Positions 3,946 through 59,580 of a DNA stretch of 64,000 nucleotides are shown here, one piece after another. The notes beneath the pieces are model-generated. The model saw only the letters and a list, made by a program, of their open reading frames with translations. It did no database searches and was not told the origin of the DNA. Position 1 is the stretch's first letter; every line of letters begins with the position of its first letter. The translations under genes were made by a program, and so were the position numbers. Origin of the DNA: Candidatus Kaiserbacteria bacterium (GTDB lineage: Bacteria > Patescibacteriota > Minisyncoccia > Phycocordibacterales > UBA2100); contig CP070993.1 in assembly GCA_017134395.1 (NCBI GenBank), positions 398,199 through 462,198 on the forward strand, read 5' to 3'.

Positions 3946-4053
3946 ATGTTGGCGCCGAGCTACTCTCGCCTTACGACTACCATCGCCTCAGAAGAGCTTA
4001 ACTTCTGTGTTCGGAATGAGAACAGGTGTACCCTCTTCGATGAAGCACCAACA
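3946..4053 (-). rRNA. rrf: 5S ribosomal RNA
   Basis: The reverse complement reads TGTTGGTGCTTCATCGAAGAGGGTACACCTGTTCTCATTCCGAACACAGAAGTTAAGCTCTTCTGAGGCGATGGTAGTCGTAAGGCGAGAGTAGCTCGGCGCCAACA, which matches the bacterial 5S consensus (CCGAACACGGAAGTTAAGC...GATGGTAGT). Helix I closes the 5' and 3' ends. Confidence 0.85.
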
Positions 4054-4074
4054 TAAAATATTCGAATGTTGTTG

Positions 4075-4313
4075 TACCTATGTTTGAAAATGAGCTCAAT
4101 CTCTCTAGAAAAGGGATTGAGGAGGATGGTGGGAATTGCACCCACAGCCTGCGCTTAGGACCGTTATAGTTACGGCCGTCGATCCTTTACTGCGACAGCA
4201 AGGACGGACACATATGCGGCACATTGGCTCGAAGGACCTTCGTCCTTACGCATCCTCATGAGGAAAAGGAGAGACGTAGGGCCCTCCAGTTCCCTCATTT
4301 TCAAACATAGGTA
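4075..4313 (-). other. Spacer element between 23S and 5S, bounded by perfect 20-bp inverted repeats and carrying an exact 25-nt copy of 23S helix 69 / I-CeuI-type homing site
   Basis: IR arms 4075-4094 and 4294-4313 are perfect reverse complements (tacctatgtttgaaaatgag). The interior holds CGGCCGTAACTATAACGGTCCTAAG (rRNA sense), identical to the 23S copy at 5697-5721, plus perfect sub-palindromes aaggaccttcgtcctt and cctcatgagg. Confidence 0.5.
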
Positions 4314-4315
4314 GT

Positions 4316-4345
4316 ATTACATAGCACTGAAATCGACATGCAGAT
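4316..4345 (-). other. 3' strand of the 23S processing stem (pairs with 7933-7962)
   Basis: 4316-4345 is the reverse complement of 7933-7962 with one mismatch; in the transcript the two form a 30-bp helix with one G-U pair that brackets 23S, the classical RNase III processing stem. Confidence 0.7.
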
Positions 4346-4374
4346 TTGTTAAACAAAGCTGTTAGAGAACTCCA

Positions 4375-7715
<3,341 letters not shown>

Positions 7716-7932
7716 TTCCACTAACTGCTTTGTTTGTGTCTTGTGTCTGTGCCAACACAACGTAAACCACTTTACGTTTGCTGACGTGTTTTGAAACTAC
7801 CAGCAAGCCCGGTGAGGCTGCTGTTAGTGTAGTTTCGATTTATTTTCTACTTAATTAAAAGTAGTAAATGCAATGTATGCCCCGTACGGAAAGACCCTGG
7901 TCGGCTAGACCAAAAATCAAACGGGACATACT

Positions 7933-7962
7933 ATCTGCATGTCGATTTCAATGCTATGTAAT
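7933..7962 (-). other. 5' strand of the 23S processing stem (pairs with 4316-4345)
   Basis: See 4316-4345. It lies about 220 nt upstream of the mature 23S 5' end. Confidence 0.7.
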
Positions 7963-9403: not shown

Positions 9404-10066
9404 TTATTGCACCTTCCCTATTTTACGCATGTGTACATCCTTCCACGCTGGCGCCATTTTATCTACAATAATTTGGTGAGGATAGTCGAGTACATCCCGA
9501 ATGAGTCTGTCGTATACACCTAAACGATACGTAAAATCTGGCGTTGAAAAAGCAGCGTATCGAAGCTCATGACCCATGTGTGATTCTAAATCTCGTATAG
9601 CCGCTTTAAGGCGCGAGTCTTTCAAAGAATCTCCTACTACCATTATGTCTATACGACTATCAGTATCACGAATAAAGACACCAGAAACGATTACGAGTTT
9701 TATTTTCCCTGTCCCATTAATCTTTTTTAGAATCCCATTATCGTCTGTCGGTTTAATGTTAAGTATAAAGTTTCGCAATGCAAGTAAGTCTGCAAAGGTG
9801 GTGTCTATAGTAAATCCAACCACTTTCTTTTTCGCCTCTTTTTTATTCTTGCCTCTGCCTTTAGTAACGATACGAGTATCGTTTTGTTTTTTAAGTAATC
9901 CTATTTTTGTAAATAGATTGAGTTCTTTTCGAACTGTTTGAGGATGAACCTTCGCACGTGTCGCAACTTCATCTGAGGTGTAGCATGAGTCAAGATTCGA
10001 TAAAAATAATCGGAGGATTTTTACCCGTGCTGGGCTTCCAAATAGTGCGCTGAGTACATCATTCAT
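9404..10066 (-). CDS. Winged-helix DNA-binding protein with a C-terminal minimal nucleotidyltransferase-like domain
   Basis: The start was moved to M17 (MNDVLSALFGSPARVKILRLF...) because the longer ORF overlaps the rplL terminator. The C-terminal region IKLVIVSGVFIRDTDSRIDIMVVGD resembles the G[SG]-x-D-x-D motif of the Pol-beta NTase fold. Confidence 0.5.
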   Translation of the reverse strand: MNDVLSALFGSPARVKILRLFLSNLDSCYTSDEVATRAKVHPQTVRKELNLFTKIGLLKKQNDTRIVTKGRGKNKKEAKKKVVGFTIDTTFADLLALRNFILNIKPTDDNGILKKINGTGKIKLVIVSGVFIRDTDSRIDIMVVGDSLKDSRLKAAIRDLESHMGHELRYAAFSTPDFTYRLGVYDRLIRDVLDYPHQIIVDKMAPAWKDVHMRKIGKVQ

Positions 10067-10095
10067 TGGGGTGATTGTAGCATAAGCTTCGTGCA

Positions 10096-10135
10096 AACAA
10101 AAAACCGGCGCCAAAAGCGCCGGTTTTTTGCAATA
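10096..10135 (-). terminator. Rho-independent terminator after rplL
   Basis: ccggcgc-ttttg-gcgccgg stem followed by ttttttg on the minus strand. Confidence 0.7.
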
Positions 10136-10148
10136 TATAGTAATGAAG

Positions 10149-10664
10149 TTATTTTAACTCAACTGTAGCTCCTGCCTCAGTAAGCTTGGTCTTCATTTCT
10201 TCTGCCTCTTCTGGCTTTACGCCACTCTTAAGGTCAGCCGGTGCTGATTCTACAAGGTCTTTTGCTTCTTTAAGCCCAAGTCCTAGTACTTCCTTAATTG
10301 CTTTGATAACTCCGATCTTTGAGTCACCTACAGCTGAAAGGTGAACGATGTAATCGCTCTTTTCTTCAGCGGCACCACCATCTGCTGCTCCACCTGCAAC
10401 TGCAACAGCTGCTGCTGAAACACCAAATTTCTTCTCAAGAACTTTTACAAGCCCGTGAAGTTCAAGCACGGTCATCTTTTCGATCTTTTCGATAAGGTCC
10501 TTGTACTCATCTGGCACTTCTACCTCTTCCGCTTCGTCAGCAGCTGGAGCTGCTTCCTCTGCCTTTTCTTCAGCAGCTGGTGCTTCTTCAACAACAGCCT
10601 CTTCTTTTACTTCTTCCGCTGCTTCCTCAGTAGCAGCTTCGTCTTTCTTTTCTTCTTCAGTCAT
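10149..10664 (-). CDS. rplL: 50S ribosomal protein L7/L12 with an approximately 50-aa acidic N-terminal extension
   Basis: The C-terminal domain [30 protein letters not shown] and hinge [14 protein letters not shown] are canonical. The N-terminus [27 protein letters not shown]... is an extra Glu/Ala-rich extension. Confidence 0.9.
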
Positions 10665-25092: not shown

Positions 25093-25186
25093 ATAAATGC
25101 ACACGTAAGCCTTTTTAAACGCCTCAATTAATTGAGGCGTTTAAAATTTTACTTATTACTCCCAAAACCGTATAATCCCTCACAAT

Positions 25187-46276: not shown

Positions 46277-46322
46277 AAAACGCCTCATCCGCCAGCTGGC
46301 GGATGAGGCGTTTTTGTTATCG
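46277..46322. terminator. Bidirectional terminator (17-bp perfect stem); rplK ends here with no rplA following
   Basis: aaaacgcctcatccgcc-agct-ggcggatgaggcgttttt. Confidence 0.7.
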
Positions 46323-50289: not shown

Positions 50290-50405
50290 CTTCTTTCTCC
50301 GCTTTTGGGAACTTGCTACAGTTGAGTATACATATACATACTTGGAGCACAACAATAAACGCCTCACAAATGTGAGGCGTTTATTGTACATGTGAATTCC
50401 AGGGC

Positions 50406-51400: not shown

Positions 51401-51545
51401 CTAGGGCGAACGATGGGACTCGGCGCCAGTACTAAGCTCGTTCCTCGCTAAGTACTCGCTGCCCCGCCGCTTTCGACAAGCCTGACTTCGCTTGGCTACG
51501 TCATCTTGTATACCGAAAGCTTTTTTCGAGTCCCATCGCTCGCTT
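51401..51545 (-). repeat. Duplicated tRNA-His 3' end (19 nt) with an inverted partial copy that forms a 17-bp stem enclosing nested hairpins; possible att-site remnant or structured RNA
   Basis: 51404-51422 gggcgaacgatgggactcg is identical to the tRNA-His T-loop-to-3'-end segment at 51591-51609. 51527-51543 cgagtcccatcgctcgc is its imperfect reverse complement. Confidence 0.5.
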
Positions 51546-51588
51546 CCAAAATGCACAAAACCCAAGGCGATGCCTTGGGTTTATATTT

Positions 51589-51665
51589 TGGGGCGAACGA
51601 TGGGACTCGAACCCACGACAACCTGAACCACAATCAGGGGCTCTACCAACTGAGCTACGTCCGCC
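51589..51665 (-). tRNA. tRNA-His (anticodon GTG) with encoded G-1 and 3' CCA
   Basis: Reverse complement: G-GCGGACG-TA-GCTCAGTTGGTAGAGC-C-CCTGA-TTGTGGT-TCAGG-TTGTC-GTGGGTTCGAGTCCCAT-CGTTCGC-C-CCA. A cloverleaf with anticodon GUG; the extra 5' G pairs with C73. A terminator follows at 51547-51588. Confidence 0.9.
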
Positions 51666-56723: not shown

Positions 56724-57740
56724 TCAAAACAATCCGAACAACTTCCCGATGAAGAATATGTACACCAATACATAAAACGCTCCTTCGTATGAGTGAATGC
56801 GTTTAGACATACCAGAGATAACGAAGAACACTGTTGCAACAACCATCATGGGTATACCTAATGCGAGTGTTGCGGGATCTACCGGCAGTGTTGCAAAGAG
56901 CCCTGGTAATCCGAGCACTAAAAGAATATTAAAAATGTTTGACCCAAAAATGTTACCGAGTGCTACCTCGTGCTTGCCTTGTCTTGCTGCTTTTATAGAA
57001 ACGGCAAGTTCAGGAAGCGATGTACCAACAGCAACAGCAACCAGAGAAATGGCACCGACTCCAATAGCTAAAATTGAGGAGATACTTAATACCGACTGCA
57101 CCAAATATCGCCCTCCTAACACTAAGGCTAGAAGACCGACTGCGAGCCATACAAAATCTCGTACGGTAAGTTTGTCAGTAGCCTCTGTTTTTGGGTCATC
57201 CCCAAAGTTCATAATCTCAACGCCGCCGTGCCGTCTTCTAAATGAAAAAAGCTGTTTCACATCACCATTCTCTGAAATACCACCGTTTCGAATTGAGTAT
57301 GCAAGAAATACAATAAATGATAGGAGCAAGAAACCTGACTCAATGGGAGTGACCGCTCCATCAATCATAGTGAGTACACTAAAAGCAGTTGCGAGTGTGA
57401 GAAGTGGGATATCAAGATCAACAAGGTTCTTGCTCACGGCTAACTTGCCTCCGACCATAGCTGAAAGTCCAACGATAAGAAGAACATTGGCAATGTTAGA
57501 ACCAACGACGTTTGCTGCAACAATTTCATTTGCTCCTTGTATGATTGCGGCAAACGCAGATACAAGTTCAGGGAGGGATGTTCCCAGTCCCACAATAACA
57601 ACACCCACAACAAAAGAAGAGAGCCCTATTCGAAGTCCTATTTTTTCTGCACTATCGAGAAACCAGTCCGCGCCTTTTACTACCAAAAACAGTGATGCAA
57701 CAAAAACAGCGCTCCATAGTATTAATTCCATACGCATCAC
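56724..57740 (-). CDS. Na+/Ca2+ exchanger (CaCA family, YrbG-like)
   Basis: Two alpha-repeat motifs (GTSLPELVSAF; GTSLPELAVSI) and about 10 TM helices. Confidence 0.85.
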   Translation of the reverse strand: MMRMELILWSAVFVASLFLVVKGADWFLDSAEKIGLRIGLSSFVVGVVIVGLGTSLPELVSAFAAIIQGANEIVAANVVGSNIANVLLIVGLSAMVGGKLAVSKNLVDLDIPLLTLATAFSVLTMIDGAVTPIESGFLLLSFIVFLAYSIRNGGISENGDVKQLFSFRRRHGGVEIMNFGDDPKTEATDKLTVRDFVWLAVGLLALVLGGRYLVQSVLSISSILAIGVGAISLVAVAVGTSLPELAVSIKAARQGKHEVALGNIFGSNIFNILLVLGLPGLFATLPVDPATLALGIPMMVVATVFFVISGMSKRIHSYEGAFYVLVYIFFIGKLFGLF

Positions 57741-57777
57741 TATAGCATGATTATACGGCTATGCTTGAAGCTGCTTT

Positions 57778-57856
57778 ACTTAAACACCTCAGCCAATTGA
57801 GCGATTAATTTTTCTTAATACGTAGTGTTTAGAAATAATGGAAGTACTCTCGTGGT
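57778..57856. repeat. 79-bp direct repeat, left copy (upstream of the Na+/Ca2+ exchanger gene)
   Basis: acttaaacacctcagccaattgagcgattaatttttcttaatacgtagtgtttagaaataatggaagtactctcgtggt. It matches 58844-58922 at 77 of 79 positions. Confidence 0.75.
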
Positions 57857-57871
57857 GGCGTTCGAGTGCTT

Positions 57872-58795
57872 CTACATTCTTTCGAATCCTAAGTGCTCCA
57901 CCCATTTCCGTAAAATTTCTTTTCCTTCGTCAGTATAGTATGAACGCATGCGAAACTGAGCATCAAAATCAATTTGATCTTCAATCGGAACATGTTTCGT
58001 AGGAATCTTCTTAAATGCTTCTACAAAATCTTCTCCGTAAGAATTTCTAAAAAATTCCTCGAATTCTGGGTTGTTTAAAAATTCGCCTTCAAACATACCG
58101 CGTACCATGCCGCGCCATGCAGTCCCTTCTTGAACACCTGCATAGGTATCAATTCGAGATGCAATATCAGCGACAAAAGCAACCCACCTTACATAAGTCC
58201 TTCGCAAAGCATTTGTTACACTTTCTGCCATTTCTTTTGAAATACCAGAACGCTTTGCATATTCCATAGAAACCTGTTGTGCAAGGCGTTCTGTCACACC
58301 TTCATTAAAAGCAGCTCCGATTCCTTCACCTTGATCGTACCCAACGCGTGCTTTTAATCCCTCCGTTTCTATGTATGAAGTAGCATGTATTAACTCATGC
58401 ACGAATGTATGTATAAGTGCTGCCTTACTACTCTCACGCAAATGCGTACTTGAAAAAGAAATTTTGTTCATATCAGGGTGATAAGCTCCTATTGCAGACC
58501 CCTCTGGGGTAATAATCACCTGCTTGTCTAAAGATATCTTATTTAAAACAGATGTATCTACACCTGATTTTCTTGCAACTTCTTCAAGAATTCCCCACAG
58601 TAATGCATAGTCCAATTCTTCTTTAAATTTCTCAAGGCTTTCTTTAGCATCAGGATTCTCTTTTATTTCTTGCTTATTCTGTTTCGTATATATCCTTTCG
58701 ATAACTTTTGCTCTTGTCTTTTCTGGCCATGCTGAATTATCATGCCTACCTCCTCTTTTTTTGAGCTCTTTTTTAAAGGAAAATTTTTCGAACAT
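57872..58795 (-). CDS. Hypothetical HExxH-motif protein (putative zinc metallopeptidase-like)
   Basis: Contains LIHTFVHELIHATSYIE; no signal peptide; flanked on both sides by the 79-bp direct repeats. Confidence 0.5.
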   Translation of the reverse strand: MFEKFSFKKELKKRGGRHDNSAWPEKTRAKVIERIYTKQNKQEIKENPDAKESLEKFKEELDYALLWGILEEVARKSGVDTSVLNKISLDKQVIITPEGSAIGAYHPDMNKISFSSTHLRESSKAALIHTFVHELIHATSYIETEGLKARVGYDQGEGIGAAFNEGVTERLAQQVSMEYAKRSGISKEMAESVTNALRRTYVRWVAFVADIASRIDTYAGVQEGTAWRGMVRGMFEGEFLNNPEFEEFFRNSYGEDFVEAFKKIPTKHVPIEDQIDFDAQFRMRSYYTDEGKEILRKWVEHLGFERM

Positions 58796-58843
58796 AGTGT
58801 GGTTAGTATAACAAACTAGAACGCTTATACTGTGCGTCGTTTG

Positions 58844-58922
58844 ACTTAAACGCCTCAGCCAATTGAGCGATTAATTTTTCTTAATACGTAGTGTTTAGAA
58901 ATAATGGAAGTACTCTTGTGGT
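58844..58922. repeat. 79-bp direct repeat, right copy (upstream of the HExxH gene)
   Basis: See 57778-57856; the two mismatches are A/G and C/T. Confidence 0.75.
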
Positions 58923-59147
58923 AACCCCGGCTCGCCCATTCTCCTGGTTAGTCGAACATGACTCCGCCCGACACAACATCAAAAAAAGAAAGCAGTTTTT
59001 GTTTGTGACCACTGATCACTAAACTCATACTTCGTCCTTCGGACTTGTATTTACTAAGTGTCTTTGGTCTGGGCTCAACTGTCTTCGCTTCGCTCATACA
59101 TGTTTCCGCCTGACACCGATATACGCAAGCAAAGCAGTTTGCTTGCT

Positions 59148-59190
59148 AAACGAAAACACTTTGCGCTAGTAGCGCAAAGTGTTTTCGTTT
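59148..59190. terminator. 43-nt perfect palindrome (19-bp stem) downstream of tRNA-Arg; bidirectional terminator-like
   Basis: aaacgaaaacactttgcgc-tagta-gcgcaaagtgttttcgttt. Confidence 0.6.
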
Positions 59191-59197
59191 ACATCGG

Positions 59198-59269
59198 TGT
59201 CCCCACTAGGAGTCGAACCCAGATCGAGAGGATAGAAGCCTCTTGTTTTATCCATTAAACTATGGGGAC
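59198..59269 (-). tRNA. tRNA-Arg (anticodon TCT)
   Basis: Reverse complement: GTCCCCA-TA-GTTTAATGGATAAAAC-A-AGAGG-CTTCTAT-CCTCT-CGAT-CTGGGTTCGACTCCTAG-TGGGGAC-A. All stems pair. Confidence 0.85.
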
Positions 59270-59580
59270 TTTTTTACAAACGTTTTACCAAAACATCCAA
59301 ATTGCACATATGTCTTCCTTCTATGACAATTAGCACATCTGATTTCACATTTTTTTATTTCGGTTAAAACTGAATCCCAAGAATAATGTCCAGACAACAT
59401 TTTTGCAACAGATTTAAATTTTTCGGATGGATTGATGTGATCAAACTCTAGAACTATCGGGTCCTTCTCTTCACAATCTATACACTGTCTACTAGATAAG
59501 AAATCTAGCACCTTTTCTCTGATACGAATCCTGTGCCTCTTTTGTGCAGCATATAAGTCCTCTCTTCTTTTATAGACCAT
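59260..59580 (-). CDS. Small HNH endonuclease; its 3' end overlaps the tRNA-Arg 5' end by 10 nt
   Basis: CIDCEEKDPIVLEFDHINP...CEIRCANCHRRK is an HNH / zinc-ribbon pattern. Confidence 0.75.
   Translation of the reverse strand: MVYKRREDLYAAQKRHRIRIREKVLDFLSSRQCIDCEEKDPIVLEFDHINPSEKFKSVAKMLSGHYSWDSVLTEIKKCEIRCANCHRRKTYVQFGCFGKTFVKKSP

Follow-up and report, generated by a model that had tools for sequence, protein, structure and literature searches.

Two near-identical direct copies of an 82-nt sequence bracket an orphan gene for a HExxH protein, between a tRNA-Arg gene and a Na+/Ca2+ exchanger gene in a Patescibacteria genome, and most likely this repeat marks—and may have mediated—the insertion of the orphan gene next to the tRNA gene. 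The best explanation that we can offer, and one that we hold to be moderately probable, is that the two copies represent a junction duplicated around a one-gene cassette, consisting of the HExxH gene and a predicted promoter of its own, within a tRNA-Arg-linked islet, where they would provide portable homology. Patescibacteria (CPR) have tiny genomes and, to our knowledge, the ways in which they gain and lose accessory genes have not been worked out so far. The locus provides a sequence-resolved example of a tRNA-linked islet whose orphan genes differ among strains with exchanger proteins 70-97% identical, and in which breakpoints fall on a small conserved hairpin module.

A composite repeat around an orphan gene

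The stretch examined (the window) comprises 64 kb of a 688-kb genome. All genes of the locus lie on the minus strand, and its features are as follows, with M denoting the hairpin module that forms the left part of the repeat:

56724..57740, minus: Na+/Ca2+ exchanger gene, the conserved right flank
57739..57747, minus: predicted extended -10 element (TGCTATAGT) of the exchanger gene, beyond the limits of the repeat and 7 nt upstream of the ATG at 57731
57775..57856, minus: repeat copy 1, 82 nt, flanked by the stop codon of the HExxH gene and the predicted exchanger promoter
57775..57806, minus: decayed terminator-type hairpin of copy 1, orthologous to the hairpin 3' of HIT in relatives
57807..57856, minus: M in copy 1 (covariance model R1, 79.3 bits), its 5' end being the exact left edge of the duplication
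57872..58795, minus: cargo gene for a 307-aa HExxH...E (gluzincin-like) protein, found at this locus only in this genome
58805..58813, minus: predicted extended -10 element (TGTTATACT) of the HExxH gene, beyond the limits of the repeat and 9 nt upstream of the ATG
58841..58922, minus: repeat copy 2, 82 nt, 5' of the HExxH gene
58841..58872, minus: decayed palindromic terminator-type hairpin of copy 2 (plus-strand TAAACGCCTCAGCCAATTGAGCGATTAA), folding at -6.3 kcal/mol
58873..58922, minus: M in copy 2 (covariance model R1, 80.7 bits)
58923..59195, minus: noncoding array after tRNA-Arg, with a perfect 22-bp palindrome (59147-59191) and two tandem units
59196..59269, minus: tRNA-Arg(TCT), the conserved left anchor
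59260..59580, minus: HNH-like ORF of 106 aa that overlaps the tRNA-Arg gene at the 5' end of the latter; its Pfam HNH score of 17.3 bits falls short of the cut-off

A repeat search of the window found the copies to be identical at 79 of 82 positions, with a start-to-start spacing of 1066 nt; the two near-identical copies reported in the preliminary description (a 79-nt core at 57778-57856 and 58844-58922, with two differences) sit within this longer repeat. The copies differ at 57777/58843 (T/G), 57786/58852 (A/G) and 57851/58917 (C/T), so the changes are not adenine-specific and, as Pfam detected no reverse transcriptase in 47 of about 60 window ORFs, the earlier dismissal of a diversity-generating retroelement was sound. 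Copy 2 ends 45 nt before the ATG of the HExxH gene (58795), while copy 1 starts 15 nt past the stop codon of that gene (57872) and ends 34 nt before the exchanger start if this is the GTG at 57740, or 43 nt before it if it is the ATG at 57731.

The repeat is a chimera, made up of a promoter-distal left part of 50 nt (M) and a promoter-proximal right part of 32 nt that represents a decayed terminator, and the repeated 82-nt unit is not an ancient functional entity. The right part belongs to a palindrome family, AAACGCCTC...GAGGCGTTT, that is the standard terminator of this genome, with members after gene 3' ends at 25117, 46278 and 50357 (seven occurrences of the family 9-mer, against 0.43 expected) and also 3' of HIT in the related loci L041, L094 and L103. 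In the repeat this half folds at just -4.4 and -6.3 kcal/mol, compared with -15.6 to -38.7 kcal/mol in intact family members. Since the copies differ at 3 of 82 positions, against a divergence of 9-12% between the window and UBA2100, either the duplication postdates the separation of these two or homogenisation is keeping the copies alike.

The 40-nt core of the repeat occurs exactly twice in the window at ≤3 mismatches (0 expected from 100 shuffles), an unfiltered covariance-model search recovered only these two copies from the 64 kb, and the exact 40-mer had no match in 185,579 species-representative genomes. Such restriction to two nearly identical copies, along with the decay of the terminator half, would fit a neutral, recent segmental duplication through replication slippage or template switching, devoid of function and of any role in the arrival of the HExxH gene. 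We regard this as highly improbable, given that a simple tandem event would also copy whatever lies between the repeats and would not bracket a foreign, low-GC orphan gene (GC 0.38, against 0.43 for the window), and that the left edge of the duplication coincides exactly with where a conserved module, independently placed in five other lineages, has its 5' end.

Two readings of the repeat had been offered previously, a regulatory leader and a cassette boundary, and they fared differently: the alleles described below bear out the boundary, while the claim of a shared leader, promoter or cis-regulatory RNA found no backing. When the Rfam check suggested for the copies was run, neither matched a family at the gathering threshold or even at E ≤ 10, and across the window and the related loci only tRNAs and rRNAs were matched. 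The repeat, with and without flanks, folded no better than shuffled sequences (minus-strand z between +0.25 and +0.47, plus-strand z -0.31), fold support within the repeat being limited to the 13-bp hairpin of M, and a consensus scan placed neither promoter nor terminator inside it.

Predicted -10 elements (TGnTAnnnT) sit between the repeat and the ATG in both genes. The one assigned to the HExxH gene is of the same type as the conserved exchanger and HIT promoters of relatives; that of the exchanger is conserved in L041, L094, L097 and L103, and is kept without the repeat at least in L097 and L094, whose sequence was read, and probably also in L100 and L101. These promoter calls are predictions from sequence and conservation, and the positions they give would leave the repeat outside both mRNAs. 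As the predicted promoters fall outside the repeat, Rfam yields no match and the 82 nt carry no fold signal, the leader, riboswitch or promoter reading is unsupported; the repeat is probably neither a riboswitch nor a shared promoter, and a false lead has thus been removed. A literature search on promoters and transcription starts in Patescibacteria returned nothing relevant.

Cargo and alleles of the tRNA-Arg-linked islet

The protein encoded by the cargo gene contains the LIHTFVHELIHATSY motif and has no close homologue among 5.8 billion proteins, although 289 distant relatives were recovered. Among 61 aligned relatives, H133, E134, H137 and E165 are invariant, the last within an NEGxTE motif, so that the gluzincin arrangement—HExxH with a downstream glutamate ligand—is conserved across the family. 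Database comparisons gave no assignment: the best Pfam score (SprT-like, 23.6 bits) lay under the cut-off of 25.6, NCBIfam provided no match, a profile search of the PDB reached E 0.042 at best and a Foldseek search of the PDB reached E 0.24 (DPP III, selecase) with a model of pLDDT 88; an AlphaFold model built without an alignment (pLDDT 41) was not used. The description of the protein as a putative zinc peptidase of unknown family thus holds, in that the metal-site residues are invariant and no Pfam family passes its cut-off. A tblastn search of all related loci with this protein found nothing.

The identity of the right flank as a Na+/Ca2+ exchanger was confirmed (Pfam Na_Ca_ex, 182 bits; TIGR00367, 212.7 bits), and the interval between tRNA-Arg and this gene was compared across ten alleles, in which the relatives' exchangers are 70-97% identical. 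The interval is empty in L097, L100 and L101, holds HIT alone in L094, and is without protein cargo in L106 (where an HNH-like ORF precedes the tRNA) and in L108 (a noncoding element only). L041/L098 carry the noncoding array, M, HIT and a 44-aa ORF, while L103 carries HIT plus a reversed 190-aa gene preceded by M, this cargo likewise being an orphan, and L107 carries a 304-aa orphan. The HNH-like ORF over the tRNA is present in L094 and L106 and absent from L041, L097, L100, L101 and L103.

This comparison with relatives, which the preliminary description had called for, found the HExxH gene at the site in the window only: it is absent from all nine other alleles (9/9), which are empty or carry different cargo, as expected of a cassette boundary. 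As its alleles are empty, carry HIT or carry other orphans, we treat the interval as a tRNA-linked hypervariable islet. No second copy of the tRNA-Arg 3' half occurs in the window at ≤3 mismatches, and none bounds the islet.

These alleles suggest how the duplicated junction might have arisen. An ancestor resembling UBA2100 would have carried, in order, tRNA-Arg, the noncoding array, M, a long hairpin, HIT, a small Zn-ribbon ORF, a terminator and the exchanger gene. A deletion that began at the 3' edge of M and reached the terminator would have removed HIT and made the 82-nt unit, after which the HExxH cassette would have entered, bringing a second such unit with it. The likely route would be RecA-dependent recombination through the 82-nt homology (RecA, RecO and SSB are encoded in the window), either by single-crossover integration of a circle or by homology-anchored uptake of DNA from a sibling strain. 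The repeated intergenic module would thereby act as portable homology, recombination between copies being able to delete the cassette, circularise it out or re-insert it, and would not serve the genes that it flanks as leader or promoter. As to the origin of the first duplicate, a circle or donor fragment already furnished with the lineage-specific 82-nt chimera has to be assumed; against the explanation, no empty or circular form of the HExxH cassette was encountered among the alleles recovered.

The conserved hairpin module M

On the minus strand M consists of ACCACAAGAGTACTTCC, an AU-rich hairpin and AAGAAAAATT. We recovered 8-9 instances from six lineages, in at least six contexts: two in the window, three in L089 and others in UBA2100, L081, L103 and L106, with an abrupt 5' edge at (C)ACCACA. 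The 17-nt head (GAGTACTTCC) is nearly invariant across lineages. The 13-bp stem that follows has conserved U.U, A.A and A.A mismatches and distal pairs that covary: 92% of alignment cells are paired, a level reached by 0/500 shuffles and compared with 37-65% in slid controls, and both sides have changed in 7/13 pairs. The hairpin has a tip of variable length (0 to about 14 nt), and its two closing G-C pairs have been lost from the window copies (TTAATC vs TTGGTC). The nearly invariant head, and the conserved mismatches in a hairpin that covaries, suggest that M has a sequence-specific partner, which may be a protein or an RNA, and count against passive homology.

M behaves as a clean presence/absence indel between L041 and L103 (z 20.6) and between L089/L106 and L108 (z 17), which gives two filled/empty pairs in two unrelated noncoding host elements; its position differs by ~14 nt between the two kinds of host element when compared by eye, a figure that rests on non-significant resemblances. 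In the window, M in copy 2 interrupts a conserved noncoding element downstream of tRNA-Arg, cutting off the second unit of the array, each unit of which comprises a CUGC-loop hairpin and a structured element. The two ends of M coincide with the left-hand breakpoints of the window duplication and of the HIT deletion. Different copies of M are adjoined by short direct repeats, of 3, 5, 9 and 10 nt (GTC/GTCGC in L089 and L106; GGCGT(9) in L103; 10 nt with one mismatch in L081) and the tandem copies in L089 share one common junction.

These sharp and reused ends (a duplication edge, a deletion edge and two filled/empty pairs), the adjoining direct repeats and the common junction in L089 could mean that M is the recognition site or end of a dedicated mobile system, its enzyme encoded elsewhere in the genome, and that a site-specific event placed the HExxH cassette at the 5' edge of an M already present; the 82-nt identity would then be a consequence of insertion and not its driver. 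M might in that case be a cassette site of the attC kind, used by a tyrosine recombinase, or else a hairpin end like those of IS200/IS605 or REP elements, used by a single-strand HUH transposase, and its conserved head followed by an imperfect hairpin with a variable tip is an architecture that resembles attC sites and the subterminal hairpins of IS200/IS605 ends. We nonetheless think a dedicated mobile system unlikely. No integrase, transposase or HUH enzyme was found in the 47 window ORFs scanned or among the called genes of ~20 related loci, and neither the R'' (RYYYAAC) nor the R' (GTTRRRY) box is present in the alignment consensus of M. The module also lacks terminal inverted repeats, its 5' end (ACCACAAGAG) and 3' end (AAGAAAAATT(GGTC)) being non-complementary, and the element ends implied by the flanking direct repeats are inconsistent from copy to copy. 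Furthermore, the duplication runs 32 nt past M into the lineage-specific fusion, which site-specific recombination at M alone would not do.

In all instances M points in the direction of the next downstream gene, including in the divergent intergenic region of L103 and at one L089 site 13 nt before tRNA-Pro, and in L081 and L089 a stable hairpin RNA and an intrinsic terminator come after it, in the manner of a small-RNA unit. Taken together with the invariant head and a hairpin that covaries across lineages, this could indicate that selection maintains M, or even the entire repeat, as a functional cis element at both sites, an updated form of the earlier regulatory reading, whether as an operator that a DNA-binding regulator occupies upstream of both promoters or as an RNA processing or stability element in 3'-UTRs (of the HExxH mRNA and of tRNA-Arg read-through). 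Such a role strikes us as decidedly unlikely: the exchanger has its own conserved predicted promoter in alleles without M (L097 and L094 at least), the next start may lie as little as 13 nt or as much as about 120 nt from M, and what follows M is of unrelated kinds, comprising a tRNA, hairpin RNAs, HIT, two orphans and the exchanger. To this may be added the missing closing pairs in the window hairpins and the lack of both a fold signal and an Rfam family.

Other identities for M were considered and rejected. M bears some resemblance to the arms of Firmicute dif, and a chromosomal dif/Xer site was discounted on finding no GC-skew switch at the locus and an inter-arm spacer that varies from 0 to 14 nt. 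A small peptide (frame c, ...PQEYFHYF*) was set aside as upstream frames and start codons are not conserved and conservation sits at the nucleotide level, in a hairpin that covaries. Four viral 17-mer matches lay within coding sequence with no flanking similarity and were attributed to chance, as were three of nine metagenome 20-mer matches (L082, L085 and L088), from which the flanking motif was absent. The M 20-mer had no match in the viral collection, and a blastn search of 50,697 phage records was likewise without a match.

If M does prove to be a recombination substrate or a mobile element, it would offer a handle on the flexible gene content of uncultured organisms and a candidate site for genetic tools.

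Known systems and tRNA-linked noncoding elements

The closest analogue is the PeSL (promoter-early stem-loop) cassettes of T4-type phages. PeSLs are small, composite and intergenic, and are found beside ORFans in hyperplastic regions; they mediate the indels that separate near-identical phages, and they give rise to mini-circles (PMC2839356, PMC4122927). Common to both are short conserved stem-loop intergenic modules on either side of ORFans in hypervariable regions, indels between close relatives that start and stop at the module, and recombination between copies as the proposed driver of cassette gain and loss. PeSLs, however, have a strong sigma-70 promoter and an efficient terminator, whereas here there is no promoter inside the repeat and the terminator half is degenerate; moreover, the setting is a cellular Patescibacteria genome beside a tRNA gene and not a phage.

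Integrons provide a second comparison, in that attC sites bound single-gene cassettes with an imperfect hairpin that has conserved ends, conserved unpaired bases and a tip that varies; near-identity between adjacent copies and a cargo of orphan genes are further shared traits. Against this, no IntI or Phage_integrase-type domain was found in the 47 scanned ORFs and the R''/R' core boxes are missing; M has a long unpaired head of 17 nt and, in L103, is placed 5' of the cargo; and there are two sites here, not an array. Like MITEs, REPs and REPINs (PMC8049555), M is a short, noncoding hairpin element in unrelated intergenic contexts, polymorphic for presence and sometimes in tandem; unlike them, it is without terminal inverted repeats or a consistent target-site duplication, no cognate transposase (RAYT/TnpA) was seen in the 64-kb window and its copy number appears low (2 in 64 kb).

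Tycheposons, flexible genomic islands linked to tRNA genes in streamlined marine bacteria (bioRxiv 10.1101/2020.12.28.424599), share with this locus a hot spot of variable cargo directly 3' of a tRNA gene, remnants of earlier insertions and occurrence in a small marine genome, and direct repeats of tRNA 3' ends flank small elements at tRNA-His in the window and at tRNA-Arg in L108; the differences are that no recombinase was found in the 47 ORFs scanned, that the islet in the window lacks a bounding repeat of the tRNA-Arg 3' end and that the 82-nt repeat is not tRNA-derived. Finally, the placement of near-identical sequence upstream of two unrelated genes recalls mobile or reused promoters (PMC3575422), except that both predicted promoters are outside the repeat and the consensus scan placed none within it.

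A separate set of noncoding elements, here termed type 1, lies downstream of tRNA-His, -Val, -Pro and -Arg genes. Two of them lie between direct repeats, 18-19 nt long, of the tRNA 3' end. The elements linked to tRNA-Arg in the window, L041 and L103 gave no nhmmer match to type 1, scored z ≤ 3 in a separate comparison with it and resemble it locally only by eye; as this resemblance is non-significant, the two kinds are treated separately. It is conceivable, though we think it very unlikely, that M and the tRNA-linked noncoding elements together form an undescribed non-autonomous integrative family of Patescibacteria, with M as a separately mobile seed for cassette capture.

The type-1 elements, with their antisense tRNA segments, merit a study of their own: 16-23 nt antisense to the tRNA 3' half (positions 54-73) stand directly before a constant core, AGACGGAGSCGGTAYACAAG. 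Guide RNAs are laid out in this way, with a variable target-matching segment on a constant scaffold, so on this same very unlikely reading base pairing could programme integration at tRNA genes, a proposal that likens the type-1 elements to bridge RNA and to the homing of CRISPR-associated transposons. At 4/6 loci examined, the antisense segment matches the adjacent tRNA.

The repeat, its genes and the shared-leader reading

An 82-nt direct repeat (57775-57856 and 58841-58922; 79 of 82 positions identical; spacing 1066 nt) contains the 79-nt core that the preliminary description had reported as near-identical direct repeats. A 40-nt core occurs exactly twice in the window at up to three mismatches, against no occurrence in 100 shuffles, and a covariance model scored without filters found no third copy in the 64 kb. 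All genes at the locus lie on the minus strand, in this order:

59580-59260, minus strand: HNH-like ORF, 106 aa
59269-59196, minus strand: tRNA-Arg(TCT)
58923-59195, minus strand: noncoding stretch, 273 nt, between tRNA-Arg and copy 2
58841-58922, minus strand: repeat copy 2
58795-57872, minus strand: HExxH ORF, 307 aa, bracketed by copies 2 and 1
57775-57856, minus strand: repeat copy 1
57740 or 57731 to 56724, minus strand: Na+/Ca2+ exchanger

The nature of the three inter-copy differences (T/G, A/G and C/T) and the lack of a reverse transcriptase among the 47 of about 60 window ORFs scanned exclude a diversity-generating retroelement, upholding the rejection made at first reading.

That reading had proposed a shared leader, promoter or regulatory RNA, and had called for an Rfam check. 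Neither copy matched an Rfam family, whether at the gathering threshold or at E ≤ 10; the repeat folded no better than shuffles, with or without flanks and on both strands (z −0.3 to +0.5); and a generic −35/−10 scan found no promoter inside it. Wherever an allele was read at sequence level, TGnTATAGT or TGGTATATT stands 6–7 nt before the exchanger ATG, and this −10-type element is kept in repeat-less alleles too (read in the window at 57747-57739 and in the related loci L041, L094, L097 and L103). HIT genes carry TGCTACAAT 6 nt ahead of the ATG, while for the HExxH gene it is TGTTATACT at 58813-58805, which lies past copy 2 in unique sequence and stands 9 nt ahead of that gene's ATG. Judged by sequence and conservation, these are predicted extended −10 promoters, whose mRNAs would begin past the repeat and have little or no leader. 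With no Rfam match, no fold signal and the predicted promoters outside it, a role for the repeat as regulatory RNA, promoter or leader of the genes it flanks is not supported.

The extended −10 motif TGnTAnnnT stands only 6–9 nt before an ATG, without a Shine-Dalgarno sequence, at 57739-57747, 58805-58813 and 25160-25186, and likewise upstream of exchanger and HIT genes in L041, L094, L097 and L103; this spacing and the missing Shine-Dalgarno suggest that leaderless mRNAs are common in the lineage.

The bracketed gene has a GC content of 0.38, against 0.43 for the window. A word-indexed search matched its product only to itself (NCBI locus JXR01_02360); exhaustive phmmer gave 289 representatives (E ≤ 0.001), the best of them 36% identical and the majority 300–350 aa in length. 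H133, E134, H137 and E165 (the last in an NEGxTE motif) are invariant in 61 aligned relatives, a gluzincin-type signature, and no Pfam or NCBIfam model reached cut-off, in agreement with the initial suggestion of a putative zinc peptidase of no known family. AlphaFold with the alignment gave a model (pLDDT 88, pTM 0.89) for which Foldseek found nothing significant in the PDB, the best matches being DPP III (E 0.24) and the minigluzincins selecase and jannalysin (E about 1). A homologue, P0002, is surrounded by core genes, and no copy of M—the left 50 nt of the repeat in minus-strand reading—is nearby; the family is therefore an ordinary, uncharacterised one of Patescibacteria, of which only the window copy is cassette-borne.

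A variable interval between tRNA-Arg and the exchanger

Relatives were found by exchanger protein search and their DNA was then compared, giving a graded identity series. Throughout the series, gene order is kept on both flanks (PilM/N/O with a 112-aa gene on one; exchanger, UppS, pseudouridine synthase and L19 on the other), and the content of the tRNA-Arg-to-exchanger interval differs in nearly every lineage.

Table. Interval content in related loci (locus; exchanger identity to window; content)
L041/L083/L084/L098 (UBA2100); 97%; 270-nt noncoding array, 50 nt of the repeat, long hairpin, HIT, 44-aa Zn-ribbon ORF, terminator
L094; 93%; HIT gene 4 nt past the tRNA
L097; 88%; empty, 75 nt
L100, L101; 79%; empty, 35–45 nt
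L103; 78%; noncoding element, reversed 190-aa orphan gene, HIT
L106; 73%; terminator and hairpin only, HNH ORF ahead of the tRNA
L108; 71%; noncoding element of about 170 nt bounded by a 19-nt direct repeat of the tRNA-Arg 3′ end
L107; 70%; 304-aa orphan and long noncoding stretches

By tblastn, the HExxH gene is absent from every relative locus in the series. The comparison with relatives suggested in the preliminary description thus finds the HExxH cassette at this locus in the window only, and that description's other proposal, that the repeat marks a cassette boundary, is supported by this absence and by the variability of the interval, which is a hot spot—a tRNA-linked flexible islet.

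Several further features of the islet were recorded. The 190-aa orphan of L103 (2785-3357, minus strand) matched only itself among 5.8 billion proteins, and the orphan products of L107 (2294-3208, 304 aa) and L106 (5063-5359, 98 aa) have no Pfam match on record; a copy of M precedes two of these three cargo orphans in or near the hot spot. The HNH-like ORF (59260-59580, minus strand, 106 aa), whose last codons overlap the 5′ end of tRNA-Arg, scores 17.3 bits with Pfam HNH, below cut-off; it is present in L094 and L106 and absent from UBA2100, L097, L100, L101 and L103. It looks like a free-standing insertion of homing-endonuclease type and may add to recombination nearby. In L097, a 227-aa ORF (9512-10195) with a faint LAGLIDADG_3 match, absent from the window, lies between the L19 gene and tRNA-Leu, putatively another such polymorphism adjoining a tRNA gene. 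The noncoding array (58923-59195, minus strand) is 91.5% identical to UBA2100, against 88.6% for neighbouring coding DNA. Within it are a perfect 22-bp palindrome (59147-59191) and a tandem pair of units, each carrying a 9-bp hairpin with a closing CUGC loop; in the L103 counterpart of this hairpin, pairing is kept by compensatory changes (GCAAGCAAA/UUUGCUUGC versus GAACGCAAA/UUUGCGUUC).

Module M and the probable assembly of the repeat

The 82-nt unit is a chimera of M and a terminator-type hairpin (right 32 nt; plus strand, TAAACGCCTCAGCCAATTGAGCGATTAA). The latter belongs, in degenerate form, to a palindrome family, AAACGCCTC-loop-GAGGCGTTT, whose 9-mer occurs seven times in the window (0.43 expected). 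Members lie directly past gene 3′ ends (25117-25142, 46278-46313 and 50357-50382, with folds of −19 to −39 kcal/mol), one of them between convergent genes, and after the HIT gene in L041, L094 and L103. Intact members fold at −15.6 to −38.7 kcal/mol, the two repeat copies at −6.3 and −4.4. The organism probably uses these hairpins as its standard bidirectional intrinsic terminator; they might alternatively be a DNA-uptake-type signal.

Instances of M (minus strand, ACCACAAGAGTACTTCCATTATTTCTAAA-loop-TTAAGAAAAATT) were gathered by a 20-mer search of metagenome contigs and then with a covariance model.

Table. M outside the window and UBA2100 (locus; copies; setting)
L081; one; between a gene terminator and a structured region ending in its own terminator
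L089/L086/L087; three; a tandem pair that stops 13 nt short of tRNA-Pro, plus one within a tRNA-linked element
L103; one, diverged (44 bits); inverted, 58 nt ahead of the 190-aa orphan, between divergent genes
L106; one (46 bits); within an element that follows tRNA-Val and precedes the 98-aa orphan

In every copy the conserved part sets in sharply at (C)ACCACA; the 17 nt after it (..GAGTACTTC..) hardly vary, and the rest is a 13-bp imperfect hairpin with conserved mismatches and a 0–14-nt tip. Across eight instances, in an alignment that had been fitted to the model, 92% of cells are paired and 7 of 13 pairs have changed on both sides, values reached in 0 of 500 shuffles (slid controls pair at 37–65%). 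Window copies read TTAATC where all others have TTGG(T/G)C, and have therefore lost two closing G-C pairs. Overall, M is a discrete module, both conserved and dispersed.

M also coincides with breakpoints. The post-tRNA-Arg elements of UBA2100 and L103 align on both sides of a gap that corresponds to M (z 20.6), as do the L089 and L106 elements with that of L108 (z 17.4 and 17.0); these two filled/empty comparisons are statistically solid. Short local resemblances between the two kinds of host element, judged by eye and short of statistical significance, put the position of M about 14 nt apart between them, which would therefore imply at least two independent placements. Both ends of M are borders in the window: the duplication has its left edge at the 5′ end of M, and the HIT deletion has its left end at the 3′ end. 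Short direct repeats adjoin M in L089 and L106 (GTC or GTCGC), L103 (a 9-mer) and L081 (a 10-mer with one mismatch); the ends that they imply for the element do not agree, so they do not establish a target-site duplication.

Relative to UBA2100, the window has lost the segment from the 3′ end of M to the terminator (long hairpin, HIT, Zn-ribbon ORF and one terminator), a deletion that joins M to the former HIT terminator. The fusion is specific to the window's lineage, and the 82-nt unit as such is therefore young. A UBA2100-like ancestor would thus have lost the HIT segment, so that M and the terminator came to lie next to the exchanger promoter on its upstream side; the HExxH cassette, with 985 nt of unique sequence and its own predicted promoter, would then have become bracketed by two M-terminator units. 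Copies differ at three of 82 positions, with copy 2 in the UBA2100 state at two of these, while window and UBA2100 differ by 9–12%.

The simplest mechanism would be recombination through the 82-nt homology, either by a single crossover with a circle or by homology-anchored incorporation of sibling-strain DNA; the window encodes RecA, RecO and SSB, with type IV pilus genes adjoining the locus, and no integrase, transposase or reverse transcriptase was found in the scanned ORFs. A dedicated enzyme, encoded elsewhere, might instead recognise M, a less likely rival that the strong conservation of M's sequence keeps in play. The feature is best described as a recombination module, built from the small conserved hairpin element M and flanking an ORFan cassette in a tRNA-linked flexible islet.

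Promoter-early stem-loop (PeSL) cassettes of T4-type phages (PMC2839356, PMC4122927) are small, conserved modules between genes; in hyperplastic regions they stand on either side of ORFans, they define the indels by which near-identical genomes differ, and they give rise to mini-circles. The locus resembles them in its conserved intergenic module flanking an ORFan, its hypervariable region and the indels between relatives at the module, but its repeat has no promoter inside and a weak terminator half.

Elements downstream of tRNA genes and other window features

A profile from four sequences defined a family of noncoding elements of about 150–200 nt directly downstream of tRNA genes, two of which contain M.

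Table. tRNA-linked elements (position; adjacent tRNA)
Window 51404-51552, minus strand, about 150 nt, 97 bits; tRNA-His (51589-51664)
L108 3835-3996; tRNA-Arg
L106 5430-5640, minus strand; tRNA-Val
L100 6388-6507; tRNA-Val
L083 919-967, also L098; tRNA-Val
L089 505-705; tRNA-Pro
L107 8982-9019; tRNA-His
L013 (5126-5451), L020, L008; more distant Patescibacteria

Elements outside the window scored nhmmer E-values of 1e-6 to 7e-37, and Rfam holds no family for them. Behind the tRNA come, in order, a terminator, a tRNA 3′ half copied in inverted (antisense) orientation, a constant core (AGACGGAGSCGGTAYACAAG) and a CTTAG...CTTAG hairpin. The window tRNA-His and L108 tRNA-Arg elements end in an 18–19-nt direct repeat of the tRNA 3′ end (18 nt in the window, GAGTCCCATCGTTCGCCC, 51421-51404), an attL/attR-like arrangement such as an integrated element might leave; there is no integrase at the window element, and no recombinase gene adjoins the elements.

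The antisense segment matches the adjacent tRNA at 20/20 positions in L106 (tRNA-Val, positions 54-73), 16/16 in L089 (tRNA-Pro), 21/23 in the window (tRNA-His, GGAAGCGAGCGATGGGACTCGAA) and about 17/19 in L107 (tRNA-His); that of L108 fits another tRNA, and that of L083/L098, beside tRNA-Val, resembles the tRNA-His type. A variable segment abutting the constant core AGACGGAGSCGGTAYACAAG gives a guide-plus-scaffold-like layout. The segment may have arisen as a palindrome grew around the terminator, may pair with the tRNA in a regulatory role, or may guide integration; should the elements prove to be a programmable integration system, the interest of the feature would rise.

Elsewhere in the window, the region 3947-7962 holds a 23S rRNA gene (4375-7708, minus strand) with a group I intron (4830-5110, 85 bits), followed by a 5S rRNA gene; no 16S rRNA was reported anywhere in the window, hence none adjoins the 23S gene. 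A 30-nt inverted repeat (4316-4345 and 7933-7962, 97%) flanks the 23S gene, and the sequence of 4154-4178 recurs exactly at 5697-5721 as a 25-nt direct repeat.
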